A stretch of DNA of 64,000 nt from Desulfobacterales bacterium (GCA_035467535.1 DATITS010000053.1:395-64394); one strand, 5' to 3'; shown: positions 7,693 to 64,000, counted from the first letter of the stretch. Numbers and translations are program-made. Notes: a model not told the origin generated them from the letters alone.

Positions 7693-8040
7693 CGAGTATC
7701 GGCGATTGAGGTCGCCCTTCCAACCAAAAAGAGCGGCTGATTCTAACGAAACTGGCAATTCCCATCGATGACCGAATCGAGCCGAAGCCGGCCAATAAAG
7801 AATCCTTCAATCCCAACGACCCTCTGGTCTACGAGATAACCAAGAACGGCCTCCCATTGATTTAGCGCCCCCATCAGTGGTGCACTTGCGACTTGAATTC
7901 GCCACGGCTTGCTCCTGGCTGCGAATCCCGACGACGAGCTGGCGCGAATGATTGCGCCACGTGCCCGCTTATTTCCCAGGCTGATGATCAATGCCCATCG
8001 GCGGCGTTACGGGATCTTTCGCGTTCTTCGACCGAGAAGC

Positions 8041-8166
8041 GACGGCTGCGCCCGAAGCCCAAGATCAAGGCGCACGACTCCCGCGGCGCGAGGCGTACAC
8101 TGTGTACGCCGCAAGCGCCGGCGGGACGAAGTGCAACGCTGAGATTGGGCTTCCGGCGCAGCCGTC
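8041..8166. repeat. long palindromic intergenic element, family B copy 1
   Basis: gacggctgcgcccgaagccc...ggcgtacactgtgtacgcc...gggcttccggcgcagccgtc. It is self-complementary end to end. Its reverse complement matches the copies at 14351-14473 and 14522-14652. It abuts the stop codon of the NifA-like gene. Confidence 0.75.
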
Positions 8167-9697
8167 AGCGGAAGGTGCGGTAGTCGATGCCGTGCAGCTG
8201 GGCCTTGTAGGCGAACTTGCGCACGGTGGTTTGCAGGATCTTGGCGGCACCGGTGATGTTGCCCCGGGTGTTCTTGAGGGAGTCGATGATCATTTCGCGC
8301 TCGAGGTTGGCGACGGCCTCCTCCAGCGACAGCGCCGGCAGGGTGCCGGACTCCTTGCCGGTCTGCAGCGTCGGCGGCAGGTGGTAGCTGTGGATGACCC
8401 CCTCCTCGCAGACCAGCACGGCCCGCTCGAGGCAGTTCTCGAGCTCCCGCACGTTGCCCGGCCAGTGGTACTGCATCAGCATGTCGATCGCCGGCGTTGA
8501 AAACCGCCTAATGTCCTTGTGGTTTTCCTTGGCGTATTTCTCCAGGAAATAATCGGCCAGCAGCAGGATGTCGGTCTTGCGTTCCCGCAAGGGCGGCATG
8601 TAGATGGGGAACACGTTCAGACGGTAGTAAAGGTCGCCCCGGAAGGTCCCATCCTCCACGGCCTGCTCCAGGTTCTTGTTGGTCGCGATGATGACGCGCA
8701 CGTCGACCTTGATGGTGCGCTGGCCCCCCACGCGGTCGAACTCCTTCTCCTGCAGGATGCGCAGGAGGTTGGCCTGGACGTCCAGGTTGATCGAGCCGAT
8801 CTCGTCGAGGAAGATGGTGCCGCGGTGGGCCAGCTCGAATTTGCCCATCTTCTGCTTGATCGCGCCGGTGAAGGCCCCCTTTTCGTGACCGAACAGCTCG
8901 CTTTCGATGAGGTTGGAGGGCAGCGCGGCGCAGTTGACCTTGATGAACGGGTTGGCCGCCCGCTGGCTGTTGTAGTGGATCGAGTTCGCCACCAGCTCTT
9001 TGCCGGTGCCGCTTTCTCCGCGAATGAGGACGGTGGCGTTGCTGCGGCTCACCTGGGAGACCATCTGGTAGACTTCCCGCATGCGGTTGCTGCTGCCGAT
9101 GATGTTGTTGATGGTGTACTTGCTCTTGAGCTCGGTCTGCAGGCGCCGGTTTTCATCCCGCAGCCGCTCGTGCTCGACCCGGATCGTCTCCAGCTTGATC
9201 ACGTGGCTGGCGACCATGGTGGCGATGACCGAAAGCAGGCGCCGCCCGTTGTCCAGGGAGTAGGACGCCTCGTAGGGCCGGTCCACGCTGAGGGCTCCGA
9301 TCACCTGCGCGCCCTTCTTGATGGGAACGCAGAAGAAGGAGAGGTCCCGGTCCTCCTTTTTCTTGCGGCTGGCGGTGCGGTCCAGGAAGCGCGGCTCATC
9401 GCTGATGTGGGGGATCGCGACCGCCTTGCCGGTTTCGATGACCCGGCCGGTGATGCCTTCGCCGAGCTTGTACCTCACCCGTTCGATCGCGGACCGGGAA
9501 ATTCCGTGGGCGACCTCGATGTTGATCTCGTTGCGCAACGGGTCCAGAAGGGTGATGGTACCCCGCACCATGTTCATGGCGCTGGAAAGAATGTCGAGGA
9601 CCTTGTATAAGGACCGCTTGAGGTCCAGGTGCTCATTGAGCGCTTGGCTGATCTCGTAGAGCAGGCTGGTCTCCTCGATGCGTTCAATCGGTTTCAT
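8165..9697 (-). CDS. sigma-54-dependent transcriptional activator with N-terminal GAF domain (NifA-like, Fis-type HTH)
   Basis: GAF region ([41 protein letters not shown]). AAA+ sigma-54 interaction module ([29 protein letters not shown] loop). C-terminal HTH ([20 protein letters not shown]). Start placed at MKPIERIEE (ATG at 9697); the tracked ORF start at 9805 is less likely. Confidence 0.85.
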
Positions 9698-9834
9698 GTC
9701 GACCCGGATACAATTTTGATATGGTTCATTTCGATTCTTACATTTTTGTGGAACATAGCATTTCCGACCCGGAATGCAACTGAAAACGTGAAACGTTTCC
9801 ACCACCGGCCGGCCTTGCGCCTTGAGCTTCCGTC

Positions 9835-10992
9835 ATGATTCTGCACATCGACATGGATGCCTTCTACGCCGCGGTGGAGCAGTTGGACCAGCCGCAGCTG
9901 CGGGGCAGGTGCGTCATCGTCGGCGGGACGTCCCGGCGAGGGGTCGTCGCGACCGCCAGCTACGAGGCCCGCCGCTTCGGCGTGCACTCCGCCATGCCGA
10001 TCTTCCAGGCCCGGGCGCTTTGCCCGCAGGCGGTCTTCGTGCCCCCGCGCATGGACCGTTACCGGGAGGTGTCACGGCAGATCATGGCGATCCTGCGGGA
10101 GTTCTCCCCCTTGGTCGAGCCGGTATCGATCGATGAGGCCTTCCTGGACGTGACCGGCACCGAACGCCTCCATGGAGCGCCGGTCGAGATGGCGCGAGGG
10201 ATCAAGCGGGAGATCCTCGCGGCGGTGCATCTCACCAGTACGGTCGGGGTGGCGCCGAACCGGTTCCTCGCCAAAATCGCCTCCGATCTGAACAAGCCGA
10301 ACGGTCTGACCGTAATTGCCCCAGACCAGGTGGCGGCGTTCATCGACCGGTTGCCCATCGGCAAGGTCCCGGGCGTGGGGCCCAAAACCCTGGCCAAACT
10401 CGAAGCCATGGGGGTGCGCTATCTGGGTGCGATCCGCAAATTCGAGGAACCGGCGCTTCTGGCGGCGTTCGGCGCCTACGGCAAGCGTCTTCGGGAATTG
10501 GCCCACGGCATCGACCCCACGCCCGTGACACCGTTTGCACCCGGCAAATCGGTCAGCAGCGAGTGCACTCTGGCTGAGGATACCCGCGAGATGGCCGCCC
10601 TCACCCGCTGCCTGCTCGCCCAGGCCGAGGAAGTGGCCGCGGGGCTGCGCAAAGAGGGGGTGAAGGCCCGCACGGTCGTTCTCAAGCTCAAACTCGCCGA
10701 CTTCAAGCTGCTCACGCGCCGAACCACCTTTGCGCCCGCAACCCAATCCTCCCAGGCGATCTTTCAGCATGCCGTTAAGCTTCTTGAAGACCACCGCATC
10801 GTTCAGAAGATACGCCTGATCGGACTCGGCGCCACCGGCTTTGTCAGGGCGGAGGCCCCCACTCAGGAGGAGCTGTTCGGCCGTGAAAAAAAACCCCGGG
10901 AAGGCTGGGAAAAAGTGGTTCGCACGCTGGAAACCATCAAAAGCAGATTCGGGGAGGAGGTGATCAAGCGGGGCACGTTGTCGGAGGAATAA
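9835..10992 (+). CDS. dinB: DNA polymerase IV (Y-family)
   Basis: MILHIDMDAFYAAVEQ...CVIVGG...ASYEARRFGVHSAM, with the little-finger domain following. Confidence 0.93.
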   Translation: MILHIDMDAFYAAVEQLDQPQLRGRCVIVGGTSRRGVVATASYEARRFGVHSAMPIFQARALCPQAVFVPPRMDRYREVSRQIMAILREFSPLVEPVSIDEAFLDVTGTERLHGAPVEMARGIKREILAAVHLTSTVGVAPNRFLAKIASDLNKPNGLTVIAPDQVAAFIDRLPIGKVPGVGPKTLAKLEAMGVRYLGAIRKFEEPALLAAFGAYGKRLRELAHGIDPTPVTPFAPGKSVSSECTLAEDTREMAALTRCLLAQAEEVAAGLRKEGVKARTVVLKLKLADFKLLTRRTTFAPATQSSQAIFQHAVKLLEDHRIVQKIRLIGLGATGFVRAEAPTQEELFGREKKPREGWEKVVRTLETIKSRFGEEVIKRGTLSEE

Positions 10993-11030
10993 ACCATGCC
11001 CGCCGATAGCGGCGGGCATGGTTTATTTCA
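10991..11030. terminator. bidirectional hairpin terminator between convergent dinB and aroK
   Basis: A 14-bp perfect stem aaaccatgcccgcc / ggcgggcatggttt with the 6-nt loop gatagc. A/T runs occur on both sides. Confidence 0.75.
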
Positions 11031-11088
11031 GGTGATATTTTCTTCAGATTTTACCGCAACAAACTACTGGGAATTCGACCTGAGTTAA

Positions 11089-11601
11089 TTACGAAATCGT
11101 CAACGATTGCAGCACGCGGCCGACCACCTGATCCGGTGTCAGCCCGTCGGTCTCGATCGTGGCATCGGCATAGCGGAGGTACAGGGGGCGGCGCTCGGCA
11201 AAAAGGCCTTCGATGGTCTGGCCCGGGGCGATGACGACCCCGCGGGCGTCCACGTCGTCGAGCCGGCGTTTCAACCGTTCGACCGCGATGTCGAGGTGGA
11301 CGGCGATTCCGTTCGCCTTGAGGTGCGTCATGGCCCGGGGGCTGTAGACGGCGCTGCCGCCGGGGGCGATGACATGGCTGGTGAGCGATAAGGAAAGCAG
11401 GTGGTTCTCCTCGATGCGGCAGAACTCCTCGGCCCCGTGCGCCTGGATGAGAGCCTGCAGGCTGCGCCCCTCGCGGACCTGAATCAAGATGTCCGTGTCG
11501 ACGAAGGCCAGCCCCAGGCGCTTGGCCAGGAGCACGCCCACCGTGCTCTTGCCCGCCCCGGGCATGCCGATGAGGATGATGTTCTTCGGAAAGGTCGTCA
11601 T
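11089..11601 (-). CDS. aroK: shikimate kinase
   Basis: 170 aa with NIILIGMPGAGKSTVGVLLAKRLGLAFVDTD (Walker A plus the shikimate-binding D). Confidence 0.9.
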   Translation of the reverse strand: MTTFPKNIILIGMPGAGKSTVGVLLAKRLGLAFVDTDILIQVREGRSLQALIQAHGAEEFCRIEENHLLSLSLTSHVIAPGGSAVYSPRAMTHLKANGIAVHLDIAVERLKRRLDDVDARGVVIAPGQTIEGLFAERRPLYLRYADATIETDGLTPDQVVGRVLQSLTIS

Positions 11602-11695: not shown

Positions 11696-11750
11696 TTCGC
11701 AGATATTGCGTAATATTTTTATTGACACACAACATATGGTATGCGATAGT
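11696..11750 (+). promoter_or_regulatory. putative nrdJ promoter (TTGACA 11722-11727, 17-nt spacer, GATAGT 11745-11750) with two NrdR-box-like sites (11696-11711 and 11727-11742)
   Basis: ACACAACATATGGTAT matches the published NrdR box consensus acaCwAtATaTwGtgt at about 13 of 16 positions and lies in the promoter spacer. A weaker half-conserved box (ttcgcAgATATTGcGT) sits 31 bp upstream. Confidence 0.45.
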
Positions 11751-11862
11751 CTAAGCCTGCCGCAGCGAAAGCTACGTCTTCCGTTCATCACCATCCGGTG
11801 AACCAGGAGATTCCTTTACAAGACAACCACCGGCGTTCATGCGCTCACAGGGGGCTGCTTCC

Positions 11863-14352
11863 ATGCGAGAGAAGGAAAAAATAGTGGTAACGAGTGAGGG
11901 GCGTTTGGATCTGGACTCCTTCACGTGGGACGAACAGGTGTTCACCGACATCCTGATTCGGGACAACCCCATCAACAGCGACCAGGCGCTGGGGATCAGC
12001 CGCTTTCTGCGGGATGAGATTTCCAAGATGGAGCCCCAGACCATCACCCTCTCCCTCATCGAAAAGATGATCGAGGACAAGCTCATGGAGTACGGGCTGA
12101 CCAAACCGACGCGGGTGCGGTTGGACAAATCCATCTTCGTCAAGAAGGGGTTGGCCCTTTCCGAAAACGCCGTCACCGTGCTGAAAAGGCGCTACCTCCG
12201 CAAGGACAACCAAGGCAAAGTGATCGAAACCCCGGAAAAGATGTTCCGGCGGGTCGCCCAGCACATCGCCAAGGCCGAGAAAAACTACGGGGCCGATGAC
12301 GAGCGCGTCAAGGCCGTCGAGGAGACCTTCTACGACCTGATGACCCAGGTCGCCTTCCTGCCCAACTCGCCGACGCTGATGAATGCCGGCCGGCGCCTGG
12401 GGCAGCTTGCGGCCTGCTTCGTGCTGCCGGTCGAAGACAGCATGGAGGGCATCTTCGGCGCCCTGCGCAATGCGGCCATGATCCACAAGTCCGGCGGCGG
12501 CACCGGCTTCTCCTTTTCCCGTCTGCGCCCCAAGGACAGCAACGTGGGCACCACCGGCGGCGTGGCCTCGGGCCCGGTCTCGTTCATGAAGATCTTCAAT
12601 ACCGCCACCGAACAGGTCAAGCAAGGAGGCACCCGCCGGGGCGCTAATATGGCCATCCTGCGAGTGGACCATCCGGACGTCATGGAGTTCATTCACAGCA
12701 AGAGCAACGACCGGGAACTCAACAACTTCAACATCTCGGTCGGCGTGACCGACGCCTTCATGGAGGCCGTCGCCGCACAGCAGGAATACGACCTGCTCGA
12801 CCCCCGGGACAGGCAGCCCGCCGGCCGGCTGAACGCCGCCGCGGTCTACGAGGCCCTGGTCACCCAGGCGTGGAAGACGGGGGACCCCGGGATCATCTTC
12901 CTCGACCGCATGAACGCCGACAACCCCACCCCGGCCATCGGCGAGATCGAGTCCACGAACCCGTGCGGCGAACAGCCGCTGCTGCCGATGGAAGCCTGCA
13001 ACCTGGGATCGGTCAACCTGGCGAAGTTCGTCGTCGAATCCGCCAGCGGGCCGGCGGTCGACTACCCCAGGCTCAAGGAGGCCATCGGCTGGTCCGTGCG
13101 CTTCCTGGACAACACCATCGACATGTCCCGCTATCCCCTGCCCGAGATCACCGACATGGTGCGGGGCAACCGCAAGATCGGGCTCGGGGTCATGGGGTTT
13201 GCCGACATGCTCTTCCAGTTGGGCATCCCCTACAACTCCGAGGAGGCGCTGCAGGCGGCCGAGGAGGTGATGCACTTCATCCAGGAGGCCTGCCACGAGA
13301 CCTCCGAGTCGCTGGCGCAGGAGCGGGGGGTGTTTACGAACTGGGAACAGAGCGTTTTCAAGGAAAAGGGCCAGCAGCGCCGCAACGCGACCACCACCAC
13401 CATCGCCCCCACCGGCACCTTGAGCATCATCGCCGGCTGCTCGAGCGGGATCGAGCCTCTGTTTGCCCTGAGCTTCGTGCGCACGGTCATGGACAACGAC
13501 AAGCTCATGGAGGTCAACCCCGTGTTCGAAAAGGCGGCGCGGGAAAGAGGCTTCTACCGCCCGGAGCTCATGGACCAGGTGGCCCGCAAAGGCAGCATCC
13601 ATGAGATCGAGGAGATCCCCGAAGAGGTCCGCCGGGTGTTCGTGACCGCCCACGACGTCTCCTCCGAGTGGCACATCCGCATGCAGGCCGCTTTTCAGAA
13701 GCACACCGACAACGCCGTGTCCAAGACGGTGAACCTGCCCCGGGATGCGACCGTGGAGGACGTGCGCAAGGTCTACGACCTCGCCTACCAGCTGCGCTGC
13801 AAGGGGGTCACGATCTACCGCGACGGCAGCAAGGAAAACCAGGTCCTCTCCTTCGGCCAGAAGAAAGAGGAGGCGGAGCGGCTCATGGGGGCCGTTCTGG
13901 ATCGGCCTGAGACCTTGTTTGGATTCACCACCAAGACCAAGACCGGGTACGGCCACCTGTATGTCACCGTGACTGAATTTGAGGGCCGGCCCTTCGAGGT
14001 GTTCGCCACCATCGGCAAATCCGGGCGTTCCACCACCGCCAAGACCGAGGCCATCGGACGGCTCGTGTCGCTCGCGCTCAGGGCCGGGGTGACGGTGGAC
14101 AAGATCGTGGAGCAGCTCAAGGGCATCGGCGGGGAGCACCCCATCTTCCAGGACGGGGGGCTGGTTCTATCGATACCGGACGCCATCGCCCGGGTGCTCG
14201 AGAAACGCTACATGACCGGCGACAATGCGCCCATGTTCCGCAAGACCGAATACAGCCTGCTCGGGGAAAAATGCCCGGAGTGCGGGCAGGTCGTGAGCTT
14301 CGAGGAGGGGTGCATGATCTGCCACTTCTGTGGCTTCAACAAATGCGGATGA
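11863..14352 (+). CDS. nrdJ: adenosylcobalamin-dependent (class II) ribonucleotide reductase
   Basis: Class II RNR catalytic core (NPCGEQPLLPMEACNLGS, TIAPTGT) and a C-terminal Cys-rich tail (CPECGQVVSFEEGCMICHFCG). The ATG at 11863 is preceded by AGGGGG. The tracked start at 11839 is the alternative. Confidence 0.9.
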   Translation: MREKEKIVVTSEGRLDLDSFTWDEQVFTDILIRDNPINSDQALGISRFLRDEISKMEPQTITLSLIEKMIEDKLMEYGLTKPTRVRLDKSIFVKKGLALSENAVTVLKRRYLRKDNQGKVIETPEKMFRRVAQHIAKAEKNYGADDERVKAVEETFYDLMTQVAFLPNSPTLMNAGRRLGQLAACFVLPVEDSMEGIFGALRNAAMIHKSGGGTGFSFSRLRPKDSNVGTTGGVASGPVSFMKIFNTATEQVKQGGTRRGANMAILRVDHPDVMEFIHSKSNDRELNNFNISVGVTDAFMEAVAAQQEYDLLDPRDRQPAGRLNAAAVYEALVTQAWKTGDPGIIFLDRMNADNPTPAIGEIESTNPCGEQPLLPMEACNLGSVNLAKFVVESASGPAVDYPRLKEAIGWSVRFLDNTIDMSRYPLPEITDMVRGNRKIGLGVMGFADMLFQLGIPYNSEEALQAAEEVMHFIQEACHETSESLAQERGVFTNWEQSVFKEKGQQRRNATTTTIAPTGTLSIIAGCSSGIEPLFALSFVRTVMDNDKLMEVNPVFEKAARERGFYRPELMDQVARKGSIHEIEEIPEEVRRVFVTAHDVSSEWHIRMQAAFQKHTDNAVSKTVNLPRDATVEDVRKVYDLAYQLRCKGVTIYRDGSKENQVLSFGQKKEEAERLMGAVLDRPETLFGFTTKTKTGYGHLYVTVTEFEGRPFEVFATIGKSGRSTTAKTEAIGRLVSLALRAGVTVDKIVEQLKGIGGEHPIFQDGGLVLSIPDAIARVLEKRYMTGDNAPMFRKTEYSLLGEKCPECGQVVSFEEGCMICHFCGFNKCG

Positions 14353-51698: not shown

Positions 51699-52274
51699 TC
51701 AAGCGTTAATTTTTTTGAGCAGCCAGGCCATGTTCTGGCCGAGGGTTCGCATGGTCCGGAGGCCCTCCTCGTCCGAGGCGACCTCGCCCTTCTCCCGGCC
51801 CACCCCCAGGTTCCAGTAGCTGGAGCCCGGGATGACCATCTGGCCGATGGTGAAAAAGTGGTTGATGGAATCCAGGGTGTGCACCGAGCCGGCGCGCCGC
51901 ACGGCGACCACGGCCGCGCCGACCTTGCGCCGGAGCAGTTCGTCGTTGGCCTTGGCGACCAGACCGGCGCGCTCGATCAGCGCCTTGAGATCGGCGCTCA
52001 TGTCGGCGAAGTAGGTGGGCGAGCCCAGGAGGATCCCGTCGGCGGCGATCATTTTTTCCAGGCATGCGTTCAGGATGTCCGTGTCCACTGCGCAGCGCCG
52101 GTTGCGGTTTTCAAAACATTTGTAGCAGGCGAGACACCCGTGAATTTTCTGGCCGCCCACCTGGGCCAGCTCTGTCTGAATGCCTTCGGTTTCGATCTCG
52201 GCCAGCACGTGCCGCATCAGTGTATAGGTGTTGCCGTCTTTTCTCGGGCTGCCGTTGAACGCGACAACTTTCAT
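51699..52274 (-). CDS. iron-sulfur flavoprotein (Isf-like NAD(P)H-dependent FMN reductase family)
   Basis: MKVVAFNGSPRKDGNT (flavodoxin-like FMN site), the compact Cys motif CLACYKCFENRNRRC (CX2CX2CX7C) and GSPTYF. Confidence 0.8.
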   Translation of the reverse strand: MKVVAFNGSPRKDGNTYTLMRHVLAEIETEGIQTELAQVGGQKIHGCLACYKCFENRNRRCAVDTDILNACLEKMIAADGILLGSPTYFADMSADLKALIERAGLVAKANDELLRRKVGAAVVAVRRAGSVHTLDSINHFFTIGQMVIPGSSYWNLGVGREKGEVASDEEGLRTMRTLGQNMAWLLKKINA

Positions 52275-52302
52275 GCGAATAGCCTCCGGGTGCATTGCTT
52301 TT

Positions 52303-53883
52303 TTATTTTACCGCCACCGTTTCCCCCCGGCGCGGCACGACCACGTCGTAGCCTTCGGTTCTCAGCTCCTCTGCAAATGCGAGCGACTGCGTCTCTTCGC
52401 CGTGCACCAGGGCGATCCGCTTGATCCGCAGGTTGGACTGCTTCAAAAAGCGCCGCATCTCGTCCTTGTCCGCATGGGCGCTGAAACCGCCGATCTTAAC
52501 CACGTGGGCCTTGAGCGGGTATTCCTTGTTCAAGAGCTTCACGAGCGGCGCATCTCCCTTTCTGCCGGCCTGCGCGTAGGCCAGGCCGAGGTCTTCGATG
52601 CGCCGGCCCAGGGTGTTCTGGGCCATGTACCCGACGATCAGGACGGTGTTCCGCTCGTTGTGGATTTTAAAGCGCAGGTGGTGCAGGATCCGGCCGGCCT
52701 CGCACATCCCCGAGGCGGCAATAACGATCTGGGGCTTGTCTTGCCGGTTGAGGACCATGGACTCCTGCACCGAGCCGACGAACTTGATCTGGTCGAAGCG
52801 AAACGGGTTTTCCCCCTTGGAGAGGAAGGCCGCGTGCGTCTCCGGGTCGAACACCTCGGGGTGCTCCGCGAACACCCGGGTCAGGTTGGTCGCCAGCGGG
52901 CTGTCCACGTAGATCGGGATGTTGCGCAGGTTGTGCTCGTCCGCCATCTCGTGCAGGATGTAGAGCAGGGCCTGGGTCCGTCCGAAAGCGAACGCCGGGA
53001 TCAACACCGTGCCCCCCCGTTGAAAGGTCTGCTCCAGCACGGTCTGGAGTTGTCCCTTGAGGTCGCCGACGGCCTCGTGCCGGCGGTCGCCGTAGGTGCT
53101 CTCCATGACCAGCAGGTCGACGTCGCGCTCCTCCTCGGCGAAGGCGAGGGTGGGGTCGTTGAGGATCGGTTTGCCGAAACGGCCGATGTCCCCCGTGAAT
53201 GCCATCCGAACGGTGCGCCCGTTCTCGCGGGAAGTGAGCATGCTGATGGCCGAGCCCAGGATGTGCCCGGCGTCGTAGAAGGTGCAGGTCAGACCGTTGC
53301 CGACGGTGACCGTGTCCCGATAGGGGTAGCCGTCGAAGCAGGAGAGCGCCTGGTTGGCGTCGGCCACCGTGTACAAGGGGGTAACGGCTTCGAGGCGCAG
53401 CTGGGCGAGCAGGTCGTTGATGGTGTCCACCTTGAGCTCGTGGCGGCCCTTCTTGAGGAGCTGCTTGACTTCCCCCAGATCCGGGGCGTCGTCGTTTCCG
53501 CCGGCGCGGGTGAAGCGCTTCTGGGTGAGCGCCGAACGCACGGTCTTGTAGTTCAGGTAGTTGGCGTCCGACTCCTGGATGCTGGCCGAATCGAGGAGCA
53601 GATACTCGCACGCCGCGGCCGTGGCGCGCGTGCAGATGACGCGACCGGGGAACCCGTTTTGGGTCAGTACCGGAATCCGCCCGGAGTGGTCGAGGTGCGC
53701 ATGCGACAGCACGACATTGGTGAGCAGGCTGGGGTCGAGGGGCAGAACCCGGTTTTTCTCGGCAGCCTCCCGGCGCCGACCCTGAAAGAGCCCGCAATCC
53801 AGCAGAACGCGGTCGCTGCCCGTGGTGATGAGGTGCATGGAGCCCGTGACTTCGCGCGCCGCGCCCAAAAAAGTGACTTGCAT
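52303..53883 (-). CDS. beta-CASP family metallo-beta-lactamase RNase (RNA-specificity domain)
   Basis: MQVTFLGAAREVTGS, SHAHLDHSG, the beta-CASP region (ESTYG...) and a C-terminal SAHAD motif. Start at 53883. Confidence 0.85.
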   Translation of the reverse strand: MQVTFLGAAREVTGSMHLITTGSDRVLLDCGLFQGRRREAAEKNRVLPLDPSLLTNVVLSHAHLDHSGRIPVLTQNGFPGRVICTRATAAACEYLLLDSASIQESDANYLNYKTVRSALTQKRFTRAGGNDDAPDLGEVKQLLKKGRHELKVDTINDLLAQLRLEAVTPLYTVADANQALSCFDGYPYRDTVTVGNGLTCTFYDAGHILGSAISMLTSRENGRTVRMAFTGDIGRFGKPILNDPTLAFAEEERDVDLLVMESTYGDRRHEAVGDLKGQLQTVLEQTFQRGGTVLIPAFAFGRTQALLYILHEMADEHNLRNIPIYVDSPLATNLTRVFAEHPEVFDPETHAAFLSKGENPFRFDQIKFVGSVQESMVLNRQDKPQIVIAASGMCEAGRILHHLRFKIHNERNTVLIVGYMAQNTLGRRIEDLGLAYAQAGRKGDAPLVKLLNKEYPLKAHVVKIGGFSAHADKDEMRRFLKQSNLRIKRIALVHGEETQSLAFAEELRTEGYDVVVPRRGETVAVK

Positions 53884-54164
53884 GGTGTTTCTCCCTTTGG
53901 TGTGGTCCAAGGCAAATGCCCTGATAGGTAGATAATGATCGCCGGCATGTCAACCCTTATCGAGCGCCAAAACGGGCCAAATCCCGCTGCAATTTCGGGC
54001 GAGCCCCGGGGCGCACGGATTTGATCTATGAAAATGGGCGCACTTGTGGCATATTTTGCCTCCGCATCGGGGTGGCCGCGGGTGGATCCCATAGGCCGCT
54101 CAGGCGCCGGCCGTTGCCGGCCTGCCCCGGGTGCACACCGTCACCGCAAGAGGATCCCGTTCGA

Positions 54165-58386: not shown

Positions 58387-60336
58387 CTACTTTTTCCTGG
58401 GCAGGAGGCCCTTGATCAGGTCGCCCGGCTTGGCCGGCACCCCGCCCGCCCCCGATGGATCGAGGGCTTTTTTGAGCTGGTCTTTCGCCATGCTTTCCAC
58501 GTCGGGCCGGAAAGCGGGATGGGCGAAGCTGCCCGACACGATGATCGGCACTTCCAGGCCGGAGCGGTCCTCTCTGTCCCCCTGACCCTTGATGGTGCCG
58601 ACCAGCTTCGGGTCTAACCGGAAATCGAGCGTCTCCTTCACCAGGTCGGCCTGGCCGGTGGCCAGCAGGCGCAACAGCGGGCTCTTAAGGGAGGTCTCAG
58701 CGGTGTGGAACACGCCGTTTTCGATCGTGAACGGGACGAGGAGTTCGGCAAAATCCGTGCGGGGTTTCGGACCGGACGCAGCCTCTCCGCCCAACGCGGC
58801 CTTCACGTTGCGAGCCATGTGGGCGATGTCCACGCCGATGATGGCGCCGTCTTTGAAGGCGAGGCGGCCCTTGCCGTCCAGACTCTGCTTGATGCGCGCC
58901 GGATCCTCACCCGTGATGGAAAGTGCGACCTGGGTATTGGCGATGCCTTCGATAAAGTCCTGGTCGGCAAGGTCCTTGAGCAGGGGGTGCACCTGCACTT
59001 TGTCCAGATTGAGTCGGACATCCGTTACGGGGCTGGCCCCTTTAACGTTCACTACGGTCTTGCCGGCCGCAGTGCCCTGGTAAAGCTTCATGGTGAGCGG
59101 GTCCAGCGAGAGGACGCCCTCCTTTGCCGCAATTTTCAAATGCACGTCCTCGAGCTTGGCGTTCTTGGCGGTGAGCTTGTCCACGGCGACCGTCCCGTCC
59201 ATGACCAGTCGCCGCAGGGGCGCGTAGTCGGTCTTTTGGGAAGTCGCCTGAGCCGGTTGGGCGCCGGAGGATGCGGCTGCCTTCGGGGGCAGATAACGGT
59301 CGAGGTCAATCTGGTCGAGCCTGAAGTCGAAGGTAAGGTTGGGCTTTGAGAACTCCCCGGCATTGAGAGTGAAGCTCAGTTTGGAATCGTCAATCGCCAG
59401 CAGTCCACCGGATACCGCCACGGCCTTGGCATCGGCCGTGACGTCGGCCTTGAGCGCCAAGCGCTCCAGCACCCTGGGGTCGGCGGTGGCGGGCAGGGAG
59501 TGTCCGATTTCGGCGAAGAGTTTGCGCGGTGAGAACTCGGTCACGTCTACGGTGAGGCGTGCCAGGGGGGCGGCGAGCAGGTTCTCCAGCGAGCCTTTGA
59601 CCTGCAGCTTCAGCTGCCCGAATGCATCCGCCTTCAACTCCAGGGGGATGGCGCCCTGGCCGAGGTTCGCCCCCACCGGCCCGAAGCGGCCTTCCGCGGA
59701 AACCGGCCTCTGGTTGACCGACGCAGATAACGAAAAGCGCACCGGCTTCTCAAGGGAGACATCCTTCAGCGACAGATTCATCCCCGAAATCTCCTGGTGC
59801 GAGCCCTTGCCGTGGTCGATAAGCGTCAGTTGCCCGTTTTGGATGCTCAGTTCCCCGACCATGAACGACTGGATGGGCAACCCCGTTTGCGAGGGGGCCG
59901 TATCGGGTTGGGCCGCGGCTTTGCCCTCTACCGGCTTGGCGCCGAAGTCCCAGCTGACATGTCCGTCTTTGTTCGTTACCAGGAAGAGGCGAGGCTCCTG
60001 CACCACGAGTCGGTCGACCTCCACCTTTTTGAACAGCAGCGGCAGCAGCTTCACGCGAACGTCAAAAGATTTCACCGTCAGGAACTCTTTTTCGGCAAAC
60101 GCCGGGGTGTTGCCCAGTTTAAGGGCGGAAAATGAAACACCCGCCCACGGGAACAGGGAAACCCGCACGTCGTCCCCCACGGACACCGGCCGGCCGCTCA
60201 CCTCGCTCAGGTATTTTTCCAGCGGCGCCTTGAACTGCTTCACGTCCACGAAAGCCGGAATGATCAGGAGGGCGGCGATCACCACCACCACCAAACAGAC
60301 GACTCCCCCCCCCGCCCATTTCAATGTGGTTTTCAT
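58387..60336 (-). CDS. AsmA-family outer-membrane biogenesis protein
   Basis: N-terminal TM anchor (KWAGGGVVCLVVVVIAALLIIPAF), AsmA N-terminal pattern (VSLFPWAGVSFSALKLGN) and C-terminal AsmA_2-like region (GRLAFKDGAIIGVDI...VPFTIENGV). Start at MKTTLK (60336). Confidence 0.85.
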   Translation of the reverse strand: MKTTLKWAGGGVVCLVVVVIAALLIIPAFVDVKQFKAPLEKYLSEVSGRPVSVGDDVRVSLFPWAGVSFSALKLGNTPAFAEKEFLTVKSFDVRVKLLPLLFKKVEVDRLVVQEPRLFLVTNKDGHVSWDFGAKPVEGKAAAQPDTAPSQTGLPIQSFMVGELSIQNGQLTLIDHGKGSHQEISGMNLSLKDVSLEKPVRFSLSASVNQRPVSAEGRFGPVGANLGQGAIPLELKADAFGQLKLQVKGSLENLLAAPLARLTVDVTEFSPRKLFAEIGHSLPATADPRVLERLALKADVTADAKAVAVSGGLLAIDDSKLSFTLNAGEFSKPNLTFDFRLDQIDLDRYLPPKAAASSGAQPAQATSQKTDYAPLRRLVMDGTVAVDKLTAKNAKLEDVHLKIAAKEGVLSLDPLTMKLYQGTAAGKTVVNVKGASPVTDVRLNLDKVQVHPLLKDLADQDFIEGIANTQVALSITGEDPARIKQSLDGKGRLAFKDGAIIGVDIAHMARNVKAALGGEAASGPKPRTDFAELLVPFTIENGVFHTAETSLKSPLLRLLATGQADLVKETLDFRLDPKLVGTIKGQGDREDRSGLEVPIIVSGSFAHPAFRPDVESMAKDQLKKALDPSGAGGVPAKPGDLIKGLLPRKK

Positions 60337-60538
60337 GCCTTTCTCACCTGAAGTTATCCGCTGACCGGTACTGCGCACACGCATCGCATTCCGGTCCCGA
60401 AACTACCTTCAATTTAGGTTAATTGCCGTAATAGTAAGCACCGGTTCACCGGGATTCAATGCAATTTTCGACTCGTGGAGCGCTCGACCTCGGAACCCCG
60501 TTGCGCGGACGTTAATTTCACGCAATGATTACAGATAG

Positions 60539-60594
60539 ATACAATATATTGGGGGTTGCGAGGTATTGACATACAACAGGAAGGGGGGTAGTAT
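60539..60594 (+). promoter_or_regulatory. putative promoter (TTGACA 60566-60571, 17-nt spacer, TAGTAT 60589-60594) with NrdR-box-like sites (60539-60554 and 60571-60586)
   Basis: atACAATATATTGggg contains a perfect CWATATATWG core. The second site, ATACAACAggaagggg, is conserved in one half only, lies 32 bp downstream and overlaps the spacer. The architecture ATTGACAYACAACA is shared with the nrdJ promoter. Confidence 0.5.
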
Positions 60595-60739
60595 GAAAAT
60601 TATTTTCGGAACATGGTAGGTCCGCGGTGCGGCGTGGGCGTTCAGCCTCGATGGCCTCGAATGCGTTCAACCTCGCGCCGGGCGAATCCGCCATTTTCCG
60701 GTACCGGCTAATTTTCAAGTGCAAGGGGAGACACTTTCC

Positions 60740-61075
60740 ATGATGACGGTTGCGCGGTTGCACGAGTTGTTCGAATCCCACCCGGACAAGACCATGCTCG
60801 GGTTTCAGGGCCAATGCCACGACTGCGGCAAGGATGTGAACGTGGCGGTGGCACTCACCCCGGAAGGGTTTGCCATCAGTGGCGGGGCGGTCTACGAGCC
60901 CGAGCCCGACAAGTTCCACAATAAATGCGACGACTGCTACTGCAAGAGTCCGCAGCTGTCCGCCTACCGACGGTGCGAAGTCTACAGCCGGGTGGTCGGA
61001 TACCTGCGGCCGGTGGCGCAGTGGAACGAGGGCAAGCAGGCGGAATTCTCGGACCGCAAGGCCTACCGGGTGTGA
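60740..61075 (+). CDS. stand-alone NrdD C-terminal domain protein (Zn-ribbon plus glycyl-radical motif), 111 aa
   Basis: CHDC...CDDC Cys pairs followed by SRVVGYLRPVAQWNEGKQAEFSDRK. Compare the class III RNR C-terminus RRVCGYLG....FN.GKQ.E...R. RBS AGGGGAG lies 9 nt before the ATG at 60740. Confidence 0.7.
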   Translation: MMTVARLHELFESHPDKTMLGFQGQCHDCGKDVNVAVALTPEGFAISGGAVYEPEPDKFHNKCDDCYCKSPQLSAYRRCEVYSRVVGYLRPVAQWNEGKQAEFSDRKAYRV

Positions 61076-61179: not shown

Positions 61180-62622
61180 CTACTTCTTCCGCCCGGCCAG
61201 GGCGTTCTGGAGCTTTTCGGCCAGCGCGCCGAGGGAGCCCCGGGTCGCCGGGCTGAAGCTCTGCCACTCGCTCTCGTCCTCCGAGCTGCCGGGAGCGAGC
61301 GAGATCCGGCGTTTCGGCACGCTGATCTCCTCCACGGCCACCGTGAGCGTGTCCCCTTCCCGGGCCTTTTCCAGCTCTCCGGCGGCCGAAGACCGGCGGA
61401 TGCTCCCCATGGGCAACAGCCCGGTGATGCCGGGGGCCAGGCGCACGAAATAGCCGAATTTCTCTTTTTTCTCGATGACGCCCTCTACCCGTTTGCCCAC
61501 GGGAAAGCGTTCGAGGACCTCGGCCCAGGGGTCGCCCTCGGCATCTCTCAGGCTGAGGGATATGCGCCGCTTTTCCGGCTCCACGGCCTTGACCACCACC
61601 GTGACCGTCTCGCCCGGGGTGACCACCTCCTCCGGTTTCACCACCCGCCGGGTGTAGCTCATCTCGCTGATGTGCACCAGGCCTTCCAGGCCCGGACCGA
61701 TTTCGACAAAGGCGCCGAAGGGCATGCAGCGGGTGACTTGGCCGCGGACCACATCCCCGGCGTGCACGGTCTCCTCCACGCTGAGCCAGGGGTCCTCCTC
61801 GAGCTGCTTGATGGAAAGCCCGATGCGGGTCTGCTTCACACCGGGGGGGGTATCGATCGTGAGGACCTTGACCCGCAGGCGGGCCCCGGGCTGCAGAGTG
61901 TCCTCGGGGGCGGCCGTCCGGGACCAGCCGATTTCGGACACGTGCACCATGCCCTCCACCCCGGGCGATAGCGCCACAAACGCGCCGAACGGCATGATCC
62001 GAGTGACCTGGCCGTCGAGAACATCGCCCGGCTTCAGGGTTTCCATGAACTGCTTCCGGGCGAGTTCCAACTCCTGACTCAGGAGCACGCGCCGGGAGAC
62101 GACGATGTTGCGCCCCTTGTCCTCGAAGCGGGTGATCAGGAACTGGTAGGTCGTCCCCACGTGGACCGAAGGGTCCGGCGCGGCGACGATGTCGATCTGG
62201 CTCGCCGGGCAGAAGGCCCGGTGCTGCATGACCTCCACATGGAAGCCCCCCTTGCAGGGTTCCTTGACCTTGCCCTCCACCGGCACCTTCTTCTGGTAGG
62301 CCTCGCGCAGGGCCTGGGCACCTCCTTCGCCGGAGATGGCCCGGGAGAGGCGGATTTCGCCCTCGCCGACGGCGGCCACGTAAAGTTCGAGCTCATCGCC
62401 CTCGGCGACGGTCAGGTTCTGGTCGGCATCGAGAAGTTCGCCCCTTTCGACCACGGCGTCGATCTTCATGCCGGTGTCGACAAAAACGCTCTCCTTCCCG
62501 ATGGAAATGATGCGGCCTTTCACCCGGTCGCCGATACGCACCTCGGCGCTCTTGCCCGGGCTGAAGGCTTCGAGCATTGCTGCAAAGTTCTCTTCGACAG
62601 GTTCACTGGGTTGATCCATCAT
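61180..62622 (-). CDS. S1 RNA-binding domain protein (multi-S1, ribosomal protein S1-like)
   Basis: At least four S1 repeats (e.g. GDRVKGRIISIGKESVFVD; GDVLDGQVTRIMPFGAFVAL; GDVVRGQVTRCMPFGAFVEI; GKRVEGVIEKKEKFGYFVRL). Confidence 0.85.
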   Translation of the reverse strand: MMDQPSEPVEENFAAMLEAFSPGKSAEVRIGDRVKGRIISIGKESVFVDTGMKIDAVVERGELLDADQNLTVAEGDELELYVAAVGEGEIRLSRAISGEGGAQALREAYQKKVPVEGKVKEPCKGGFHVEVMQHRAFCPASQIDIVAAPDPSVHVGTTYQFLITRFEDKGRNIVVSRRVLLSQELELARKQFMETLKPGDVLDGQVTRIMPFGAFVALSPGVEGMVHVSEIGWSRTAAPEDTLQPGARLRVKVLTIDTPPGVKQTRIGLSIKQLEEDPWLSVEETVHAGDVVRGQVTRCMPFGAFVEIGPGLEGLVHISEMSYTRRVVKPEEVVTPGETVTVVVKAVEPEKRRISLSLRDAEGDPWAEVLERFPVGKRVEGVIEKKEKFGYFVRLAPGITGLLPMGSIRRSSAAGELEKAREGDTLTVAVEEISVPKRRISLAPGSSEDESEWQSFSPATRGSLGALAEKLQNALAGRKK

Positions 62623-62928: not shown

Positions 62929-64000
62929 TCAGCCATGTCTCAGGAGGCGGTTGATGTATCGGAAATACGTCTGGCTCTGGCTGTGCATGTGGAAGACCCA
63001 GAGGTTGTAGATCTTTTCCGTTGGCAGTCCGTTTTCCTTGGCGTAGGTCGCGGGGAAGACGAGCGCCGGGACGTGCTCCTGGCCGGTGATGCGGCGGACC
63101 ATCCGGAGTGCGGCGGCGAGCACGTCCGGCGCGAGCCCCTTGGGTTCAAGCACGAGTGCTGTGATGCAGTTCGTCAGGTCCGAGAGGTTGAGCCCGATGT
63201 CGGAGACGTTGGCGATCAGGAATGCCCTGAGCCTGCCGTCTTCCTTCAGCGTGAACAGATGGCGGTCACGTCTGAACCCGCACTTTCGAAACTCTTGGCA
63301 CAGGTTGTCGTCCTGCCACGTCGTTGGCTGCAGGTCCAGGGCCTTCAGCATGGGGCCGCCGTAGTTGCGGTCGTAGAGGTATTCCAGGTCGGCCACATCC
63401 GTGCTCTCGGCCCGGCCAAACTCCCAACGCGTCGGCAGGCTCAAGTCCCCGTCGCCGCCTTCGGGGTGCGCCATATAGGCAAAGGCGTCCACCGAGCAGC
63501 CCTGGCGGTCGTTGATGAACTTGGCCGCCCCCCCGAATACCCGGTTCGGAAATCTGTTCTTGGGCTGGTAGTAGCATACCAGGTAATCCAGGTGCAGCCC
63601 GCGCAAGCGGTAGGTGTCATGGCCGAAACGGCCGATCTGGTCGAGCACGATGAGGCCCGCCCGGTTCAAGGCGGACTTGCGGGCGGCATGATGGTGGATG
63701 AGCCAGGAACTTTTCCAATATCGGATCGTCGCCAGATGGGCAAGGATAGTGCCGTCGTTCTGGTAGACGAAATGCCGGGCGATCTCCGGGCTGCGGGTGT
63801 AAAGCTTTTGGTAGGTCTGCTTGATCTGCTCCTTGTTGGCGTGGATGAGAGCGTATTTCTTGGGGTAGATGAAGCCGGTTTCAAACAGGAAATCCCAAAG
63901 GGCATCCAGGTCCAGATCGTTGCACACATAGGAGTTCCTGTTCTGCACCTGGTGCAGCATCGCCAGTAGCTTGACGTGATCCTGGGCCGTAATGTCGATC
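62929..64000 (-). CDS. hypothetical protein (5' end may lie beyond the window)
   Basis: The frame is open from the window edge (IDITAQDHVKLLAMLHQ...). It is a 343-aa or longer product with coding-like composition and no motif I can name. Confidence 0.6.
   Translation of the reverse strand, partial: IDITAQDHVKLLAMLHQVQNRNSYVCNDLDLDALWDFLFETGFIYPKKYALIHANKEQIKQTYQKLYTRSPEIARHFVYQNDGTILAHLATIRYWKSSWLIHHHAARKSALNRAGLIVLDQIGRFGHDTYRLRGLHLDYLVCYYQPKNRFPNRVFGGAAKFINDRQGCSVDAFAYMAHPEGGDGDLSLPTRWEFGRAESTDVADLEYLYDRNYGGPMLKALDLQPTTWQDDNLCQEFRKCGFRRDRHLFTLKEDGRLRAFLIANVSDIGLNLSDLTNCITALVLEPKGLAPDVLAAALRMVRRITGQEHVPALVFPATYAKENGLPTEKIYNLWVFHMHSQSQTYFRYINRLLRHG

Follow-up and report, generated by a model that had tools for sequence, protein, structure and literature searches.

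A stand-alone glycyl-radical domain of NrdD in Desulfobacterota: a candidate spare part for class III ribonucleotide reductase

Introduction

Why should the radical-bearing end of an anaerobic ribonucleotide reductase have a gene of its own? The question is raised by a small gene in a 64,000-nucleotide stretch of DNA from a Desulfobacterales bacterium (GCA_035467535.1 DATITS010000053.1:395-64394), the whole of which is referred to below as the window. A first-pass annotation had described its 111-aa product, here called the mini protein, as a stand-alone glycyl-radical domain (GRD) of NrdD, the class III ribonucleotide reductase (RNR), and as a possible spare part for that enzyme. Our sequence comparisons confirmed the first part of this description, namely that the mini protein is an NrdD GRD standing alone. 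The role that we favour for it, by a small balance, is that of an autonomous glycyl-radical cofactor for NrdD, which would be analogous but not homologous to GrcA.

Glycyl-radical enzymes are irreversibly destroyed by oxygen. The GRD of NrdD is a mobile domain in which a zinc site is combined with a buried Gly loop and a surface tail (PMC11226230). In NrdD, as in pyruvate formate-lyase (PFL), the position at which oxygen cuts the backbone is the radical Gly (PMC12288474). PFL has a free GRD protein, YfiD/GrcA, which the PFL-activating enzyme activates and which takes the place of the damaged domain (PMC13450708). According to the same review, of June 2026, spare parts are known for formate lyases only, and whether there are others is "yet to be determined" (PMC13450708). 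No description of a spare part for NrdD was found in the literature searched, which also gave nothing useful on the RNR inventories of Desulfatibacillum.

Results

The mini protein corresponds to the C-terminus of NrdD

The in-frame open reading frame (ORF) runs from 60719 to 61075, and the ORF listing gives a GTG at 60719 as the first in-frame start. The ATG at 60740, which is positioned 9 nt after the Shine-Dalgarno sequence, was favoured as the start codon, since an N-terminus of the form MMT... is common to all homologues and the public gene callers arrive at the same 111-aa product. The ORF that the first-pass annotation placed at 60740-61075 is present. Four parts can be distinguished in the protein, namely a family-specific N-terminal helix, a predicted zinc beta-sheet domain with four Cys, the radical loop YSRVVG87YLRP, and a C-terminal tail (Table 1). 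The loop and tail of the product read SRVVG87YLRPVAQWNEGKQAEFSDRK, and SRVVGYLRPVAQWNEGKQAEFSDRK is present. The two Cys pairs, CHDC and CDDC, and the radical Gly, encoded at 60998-61000, were read in the sequence just as they had been described.

When the mini protein was scanned against Pfam at E<=10, NRDD was the sole match (residues 37-109, aligned to the end of the 562-position profile at 521-562, E 2e-11, with a score that passes the gathering threshold), and homology to Gly_radical, the C-terminus of GrcA and PFL, was absent. The NCBIfam model TIGR02487 (NrdD) aligned residues 58-108 with its positions 538-580 of 581, at 40 bits against a cut-off of 326. Six NCBIfam NrdD models aligned by their last ~30-50 positions only, with scores about ten-fold or more under the full-length cut-offs. 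A profile of the family compared with NrdD C-termini by hhalign gave a probability of 99.9% and an E value of 5e-32 over residues 60-111 only, a stretch that begins with the second Cys pair (placed on the NrdD CPxC) and goes on through the radical loop to the tail. Over residues 78-111, identity to the tails of full-length NrdDs in the YSRVVGYLRP subclass amounts to 82-90%. In a search of the PDB with a sequence profile, the tail of T. maritima NrdD was the sole match (E 0.06). The similarity to the NrdD C-terminus is thus significant in the Pfam and hhalign comparisons, and, as the first-pass annotation had claimed, it is limited to that end of the enzyme: the Pfam and NCBIfam matches cover the last ~45 positions, and the ~600-aa catalytic barrel is missing.

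The protein of 111 aa does not contain the NrdD barrel, which is a ten-stranded alpha/beta structure of ~550-600 aa with the catalytic Cys on a finger loop. It does contain the radical loop and the following tail of the GRD, the stretch YSRVVG87YLRPVxQWNxxKxxEF being invariant or nearly so, and four invariant Cys (C26, C29, C63 and C66) precede the Gly loop as a putative zinc site. In this it resembles GrcA/YfiD, being a small free-standing protein built of the GRD of a parent enzyme. The further claim that it reproduces the Zn ribbon of NrdD stood in part. The NrdD zinc site is matched by the second Cys pair, but the first CxxC is not homologous to an NrdD knuckle and belongs, with the rest of residues ~1-59, to a domain that is specific to the mini family and has no NrdD counterpart in the profile-profile comparison. 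In an AlphaFold2 (AF2) model, a helix at residues 4-13 and a five-stranded sheet at residues 19-62 were predicted with a local confidence score (pLDDT) of 83-91, and the radical loop was modelled, at low confidence, as a beta-hairpin that has Gly87 at the tip.

The mini gene belongs to a large family and is under purifying selection

Pairwise dN/dS among ten orthologues was 0.05-0.23, with the exception of one near-identical pair (0.46). This indicates purifying selection on the ORF, which is retained in close relatives. A search of 5.8 billion proteins gave 810 matches, the top 120 of which are 88-139 aa long and 56-95% identical. In a profile search of 1.84 billion cluster representatives, 468 were matched at E<=1e-10 and 3982 at the looser limit of E<=1e-3; all of the 150 best representatives have 53-159 aa. 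Small ORFs of the NrdD C-terminus, whose distribution the first-pass annotation had proposed to survey, are thus widespread. The subtype of the window was found in the genomes of Desulfobacteraceae/Desulfatibacillum-like metagenome-assembled genomes (MAGs), including a complete 6.8-Mb chromosome (CP070697.1). The subtype also occurs in JBGLNO010000001.1 (GCA_041322375.1), and JACRCN01 and CAWAUC01 likewise encode a member of the family. Members of the family are named "anaerobic ribonucleoside-triphosphate reductase" by the NCBI pipeline and mostly "hypothetical protein" by JGI.

Free Gly-loop ORFs were set apart into three kinds. Type A, to which the gene of the window belongs, encodes 111-125 aa with the N-terminal helix MMTVERLHELFD, occurs in GC-rich Desulfobacterota and is always stand-alone; type B encodes 87-110 aa without the helix and occurs in low-GC organisms; and type C encodes 45-75 aa without the zinc domain. 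The residues C26, D28, C29, C63, C66, E80, Y82-S-R-V-V-G-Y88, R90, P91, K99 and E102 are invariant in both subtypes of the mini family. These would be exactly the residues that a substrate of the activase NrdG needs, and the set matches the described layout of the GRD, in which a Zn site is followed by the buried Gly loop and the surface tail (PMC11226230).

As had been noted before, the gene is flanked by unrelated intact genes, for an AsmA-family protein upstream and a protein with five S1 domains downstream, and this order (AsmA, mini gene, S1) is retained in relatives. A tblastn search with seven NrdD cores and two NrdGs found neither an NrdD core nor an NrdG in the 64-kb window, nor any remnant of an NrdD core upstream of the mini gene, and a class II nrdJ is present, which agrees with the inventory of the window in the first-pass annotation. 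In the orthologous locus L022 (2844-9844, GCA_053529275.1), the mini gene follows a cobalamin-related block with CbiK, a FecCD/ABC/periplasmic-binding transporter and TP_methylase.

Some relatives lie between intact nrdD and nrdG

In five metagenome contigs (L052, L054, L056, L062 and L066), all from low-GC uncultured organisms, a type B gene of 92 aa was found between intact nrdD and nrdG. The layout in L052 is nrdD at 8033-10168, the mini gene at 10170-10448 and nrdG at ~10486-11196, and the NrdD encoded there is 711 aa long with its own CPxC...CEVYSRVVGYLRP tail. Over 31 residues from EVYSR onward, the NrdD and the adjacent mini protein of these operons are identical or nearly so, and the two have lineage-specific states in common (GYI in L056 and L066; QKEFSERK in L066). 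Their codons differ synonymously at 8-13 of 32 positions in L052, L054 and L056, at 3 in L066 and at 0 in L062. Because of these synonymous differences, the identity of the loops appears to be held by selection with occasional conversion and not to come from recent duplication. This sample is small, with five loci of which three are near-identical close relatives.

Intact nrdD-nrdG with intact tails is also carried by Desulfobacterales MAGs (L088, L111, L112 and P0551). A search with a chimeric profile of the NrdD pre-tail joined to mini tails gave mostly fragments at contig ends, which showed nrdD-nrdG in such MAGs, though in none that is known to hold the mini gene. In L112 (8569-10561, an 801-kb ENA contig), the Desulfobacterota-like nrdD was called as two ORFs of 462 and 186 aa before nrdG, which is possibly a frameshift in the long-read assembly rather than a real split. 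The full-length NrdD of L101 is from Bipolaricaulota. Some other full-length NrdDs exceed the usual length by 300-400 aa (L074/L075, 1061 aa; L090, 1139 aa; L094, 1122 aa). Their database relatives P0438 and P0440 have intein/LAGLIDADG Pfam domains, and the overlong nrdD genes probably contain inteins.

The radical loop is encoded separately in naturally split NrdDs

In an NrdD clade with the signature CPKCDEE[IV]GY, the enzyme ends just after the zinc site, and the Gly loop is found on a separate ORF of 45-75 aa, which is followed by nrdG. This layout was found in eight loci that differ in frame and stop codon, MAGs of Woesearchaeota and Omnitrophica among them. The cultured species Ralstonia solanacearum shows it as well: its megaplasmids encode a 685-aa "ribonucleoside triphosphate reductase", a 58-aa ORF overlapping the stop codon of the former, and nrdG. 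The 58-aa ORF (...RCEVWTRVMGYHRPVSSFNTGKQGEF...) is annotated as "hypothetical protein" or is unannotated, and the tail was matched in 132 Ralstonia records. Since the loci of Ralstonia and of the metagenomes encode it separately, the radical loop of class III RNR can be supplied in trans in nature. No description of a split NrdD was found in the literature searched.

A mini gene is carried by an archaeal virus

ANMV-1 (KP703175.1), a virus of ANME-1 archaea with terminase, prohead protease and tail fibres, carries a mini GRD gene (L194 7905-8339; coding sequence AJP62049.1, 144 aa), whose product is 41-50% identical to mini proteins over the whole length. There is no annotated nrdD or nrdG in 1-33.9 kb of this 38.5-kb record. 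The viral mini gene parallels Y06I of T4, the phage counterpart of GrcA.

Among the best 80 loci in IMG/VR (L113-L192), on contigs that this database classes as viral, there are 52 "mini" and 15 "tiny" ORFs without an NrdD core or NrdG within 6 kb. By PHROGs and Pfam, the neighbours on three of these contigs are an SbcC-like protein, Mre11-like phosphoesterases, a peptide deformylase and an endolysin-like protein, which are suggestive only; the viral status of the IMG/VR contigs is weakly supported, and the viral argument rests on the annotated ANMV-1. Tail matches were also seen in the Oceanotoga phage vB_OteS-UFV02 and in a human-gut phage record.

Putative NrdR boxes are shared with nrdJ

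The ribosome-binding site, the sigma-70-like promoter and the upstream NrdR-like operator that had been attributed to the gene were all recovered here (AGGGGAG, TTGACA-17-TAGTAT and a box matching at 13/16), and the box is conserved upstream of orthologues. Three promoter-like sites came out of the promoter scan of the region, where chance alone would give 0.3. Only two sites in the 64 kb match the NrdR-box consensus at 12/16 or better, and these are at 60539, before the mini gene, and at 11727, before nrdJ, the product of which has Ribonuc_red_lgC and TSCPD domains. The nrdJ box has a weaker partner box 31 nt upstream (11696-11742 in the window). The two promoters are therefore alike in having a weaker partner box 31-32 nt off, and they have the core TTGACAyACAAC in common. 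The gene nrdR itself was not detected in the window.

Among orthologues, tandem boxes that overlap the TTGACA hexamer persist down to 57% identity, and the hexamer and GAGG-type Shine-Dalgarno motifs are themselves conserved. Orthologues such as L013, L034 and L046 have stronger second boxes in the same tandem layout, the textbook pairs being those of L034 and L046, TTAC(A/T)ATATATTGTGG -32- ACACAATATATATAGC. Among 50 unique stand-alone loci, a box of at least 12/16 was found in 18 (background 3.9%, a 9-fold enrichment) and a tandem pair 30-33 nt apart in 15 (background 3.5%); the box-bearing loci are almost all of the subtype of the window. Tandem 16-bp boxes ~31-32 bp apart that overlap the promoter, as in the NrdR regulon, are thus predicted for the mini gene.

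The 5' leader is well conserved in the close relatives L003-L006 and L028, and distant orthologues have short leaders. An RNA element in the leader was considered and dropped, as there was no Rfam match and no covariation support for structure in an alignment of 5 close relatives.

Features of the window and of the split nrdD loci

The features discussed above are collected in Table 1. At E<=1e-3, Pfam matches neither of two further ORFs of the window, at 62929-63960 (minus strand, 343 aa) and 52228-53931 (plus strand, 567 aa).

Table 1. Positions of the mini gene, its predicted control elements, its neighbours and the split nrdD loci. Positions are those of the window unless a locus is named.
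Feature	Position	Strand	Basis or remark
Coding sequence, 111-aa stand-alone NrdD-type GRD protein, stop included	60740..61075	+	ORF and homology
Cys pair 1, C26-H-D-C29 (CHDC), family-specific putative zinc knuckle	60815..60826	+	C26, D28 and C29 invariant in both subtypes
Cys pair 2, C63-D-D-C66 (CDDC)	60926..60937	+	Invariant; aligns with the CPxC knuckle of the NrdD zinc site (profile-profile)
Glycyl-radical loop E80-V-Y-S-R-V-V-G87-Y-L-R-P91	60977..61012	+	Invariant in the family
NrdR-type operator box 1 (predicted), ATACAATATATTGGGG	60539..60554	+	13/16 against the consensus acaCwAtATaTwGtgt; just upstream of -35
NrdR-type operator box 2 (predicted, weak), ATACAACAGGAAGGGG	60571..60586	+	9/16; 32 nt after box 1; between -35 and -10
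Predicted sigma-70-type promoter, TTGACA-17-TAGTAT	60566..60594	+	10/12 matches, consensus scan
5' leader, ~130-140 nt	60595..60723	+	Conserved among close relatives only
Shine-Dalgarno sequence AGGGGAG	60724..60730	+	Read from the sequence; 9 nt before the ATG
AsmA-family protein, upstream neighbour	58387-60384	-	Intact, unrelated
Five-S1-domain protein, convergent downstream neighbour	61180-62622	-	Intact, unrelated
NrdR box (predicted), ACACAACATATGGTAT, promoter of class II nrdJ (coding sequence 11839-14352)	11727..11742	+	13/16; overlaps the spacer after TTGACA
Split-clade nrdD loci	L014 4262-7217; L017 1704-4571; L079, L083, L085, L092, L098, L103
Ralstonia solanacearum split locus	L196, CP047137.1, 1887-4826		Signature CPKCDAQ

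Discussion

Proposed function of the mini protein

The mechanism proposed here is based on the analogy of GrcA and PFL together with the evidence from linkage, split NrdDs and the virus. On the free protein, NrdG would generate the radical at Gly87, in the way that it activates the C-terminal domain of NrdD. The loop would then dock into the barrel of an NrdD whose own GRD is disengaged or has been destroyed by oxygen, its backbone being cut at the radical Gly, and docking would restore the synthesis of deoxynucleoside triphosphates (dNTPs) without the ~700-aa enzyme having to be remade. In this lineage of Desulfobacterota the gene, predicted to be monocistronic and NrdR-controlled, would be de-repressed together with nrdJ when the dNTP supply falls. 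The suggestion of a GrcA-like spare part for NrdD has thus gained from the operons with intact NrdD, the loop that is identical at the protein level, the two-piece NrdDs and the viral mini gene; the function itself, that is, radical installation, docking and rescue by the mini protein, is what we infer from the analogy.

A wider reading, to which we give an even chance, is that the mini proteins would represent the first spare-part system outside PFL. They would be a widespread unrecognised family, activated by NrdG and re-arming class III RNR after damage by oxygen, which is under predicted NrdR control in sulfate-reducing Desulfobacterota, lies in nrdD-nrdG operons elsewhere, and in archaeal viruses and phages would sustain the anaerobic dNTP synthesis of the host.

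Several observations weigh against a spare part for NrdD. No nrdD or nrdG was found within 10 kb of any of the ~45 type A loci, nor in the window. The tails of Desulfobacterales NrdDs, PVKQWNNGKQAEY..., are similar but not identical to those of type A mini proteins, PVAQWNEGKQAEF... (compare PVKQWNNGKQAEYSDRKVYRVA with PVAQWNEGKQAEFSDRKAYRV), so that co-variation with the cognate NrdD was seen for the operonic subtype only, in the five loci of which three are near-identical. Val directly before Gly87 and Arg shortly after it are unlike the classical fingerprint of glycyl-radical enzymes, although the same states are common to the full-length NrdDs of this subclass. The AF2 model is moderately confident, with a pLDDT of 77 overall and of 55-60 in the loop, and a Foldseek search with it against the PDB gave no significant structural neighbour. 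Low confidence in the loop is to be expected, because this segment would be buried in the barrel of the partner.

Alternative explanations

That the gene is non-functional, whether as a spurious ORF or as what is left of the 3' end of a decayed nrdD, would fit a homology limited to the NrdD C-terminus. This was ruled out by the dN/dS values, the family size and the synteny, and it keeps hardly any probability: hundreds of diverged clusters share the size and the family-specific N-terminal domain, a promoter, ribosome-binding site and operator of its own are predicted, and no NrdD-core remnant lies upstream. The first-pass annotation had likewise held that the gene is not a fragment of a decayed nrdD. 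The mini protein could instead be the obligatory radical-bearing small subunit of a two-piece NrdD, in which case the resident NrdD would have no GRD of its own and would be supplied with one always, not only after damage. Split class III RNRs with a separate Gly loop do exist, in eight metagenome loci and in Ralstonia, and the mini protein holds a complete GRD with a putative Zn site, the loop and the tail. Every small ORF of the split type, however, is of 45-75 aa, lacks the Zn domain and lies directly between nrdD and nrdG, whereas the Zn-containing mini members adjoin an intact NrdD when they are linked at all, and the nrdD tails recovered from Desulfobacterales are intact; an obligatory subunit is for these reasons distinctly improbable.

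A role as a regulator or decoy, which would compete with NrdD for NrdG, act as a buffer or store of the radical, or obstruct the barrel and so tune class III RNR against NrdJ, we regard as unlikely. The features of an NrdG substrate would equally make a competitor, the NrdR boxes in common with nrdJ predict co-regulation, the family-specific N-terminal domain is without an assigned role, and in viruses such a protein could manipulate the dNTP synthesis of the host. But the strict conservation of the loop and tail, which make the barrel and surface contacts in NrdD, and the co-variation with the cognate NrdD point to productive docking; an exact copy of the tail of the partner is not needed by a decoy, and viruses usually carry genes that boost the nucleotide supply. 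Somewhat less probable again is a zinc-ribbon protein co-opted outside class III RNR, for example as a partner of NrdJ or of a radical-SAM enzyme, in organisms without nrdD and nrdG. This would account for the lack of these genes near type A loci, for an nrdJ in the window with the same operator type, and for the orthologue L022, which adjoins genes of cobalamin uptake and biosynthesis. Against it, the radical loop shows no variation and is almost the same as in active NrdDs across >50% overall divergence, which is hard to explain without NrdG and an NrdD barrel, and Desulfobacterales MAGs do carry nrdDG. A partnership with NrdJ in particular is unlikely, as the conserved part is exactly the radical loop specific to NrdG and NrdD, and the NrdJ encoded here has a C-terminal TSCPD domain of its own.

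Comparison with known systems

The candidate spare part resembles GrcA/YfiD and T4 Y06I in being encoded apart from the parent enzyme and in being virus-borne as well, and both GrcA/YfiD and the mini protein would presumably be activated by the activase of the parent. It differs in having no sequence relation to GrcA or PFL, in that its parent would be NrdD and its activase NrdG, and in having NrdR boxes and a predicted folded zinc domain with four Cys where the N-terminus of YfiD is disordered. Its second zinc knuckle, radical loop and tail are shared, in the same order, with the GRD of full-length NrdD (for example of P. copri, T4 and T. maritima). It is, however, encoded by a separate gene and has neither the ATP-cone nor the ~600-aa barrel that bears the catalytic Cys, and the C-x2-H of the first NrdD knuckle gives way to CHDC, which is part of a new beta-sheet domain that comes with an N-terminal helix.

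The naturally split NrdDs are similar in that the radical loop of class III RNR is on a polypeptide of its own and acts in trans. Their small ORFs, which are always placed between nrdD and nrdG and are presumably obligatory, have no zinc domain, this domain remaining part of the large subunit, whereas the protein of the window has a complete GRD and is unlinked, and its operonic relatives co-exist with intact NrdD. In the split class II enzyme NrdJa/NrdJb of Pseudomonas aeruginosa, the C-terminal Zn-finger part is likewise a separate polypeptide (PMC9669993). That system differs in using adenosylcobalamin and a Cys pair as a reductant shuttle, with no glycyl radical, and in being the obligatory split of one gene rather than an extra copy.

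Implications

The family provides a concrete and widespread spare-part candidate for the enzyme by which anaerobes produce their DNA precursors. Because trans-complementation already operates in the cultivable Ralstonia, the idea is directly testable, and the mini protein would offer structural biologists a small soluble substrate of NrdG. If the proposal is true, the NrdR regulon gains a member and a new class of viral auxiliary gene is added, and the recovery of DNA synthesis after oxygen pulses, in strict anaerobes that live at oxic-anoxic interfaces, would have an explanation.

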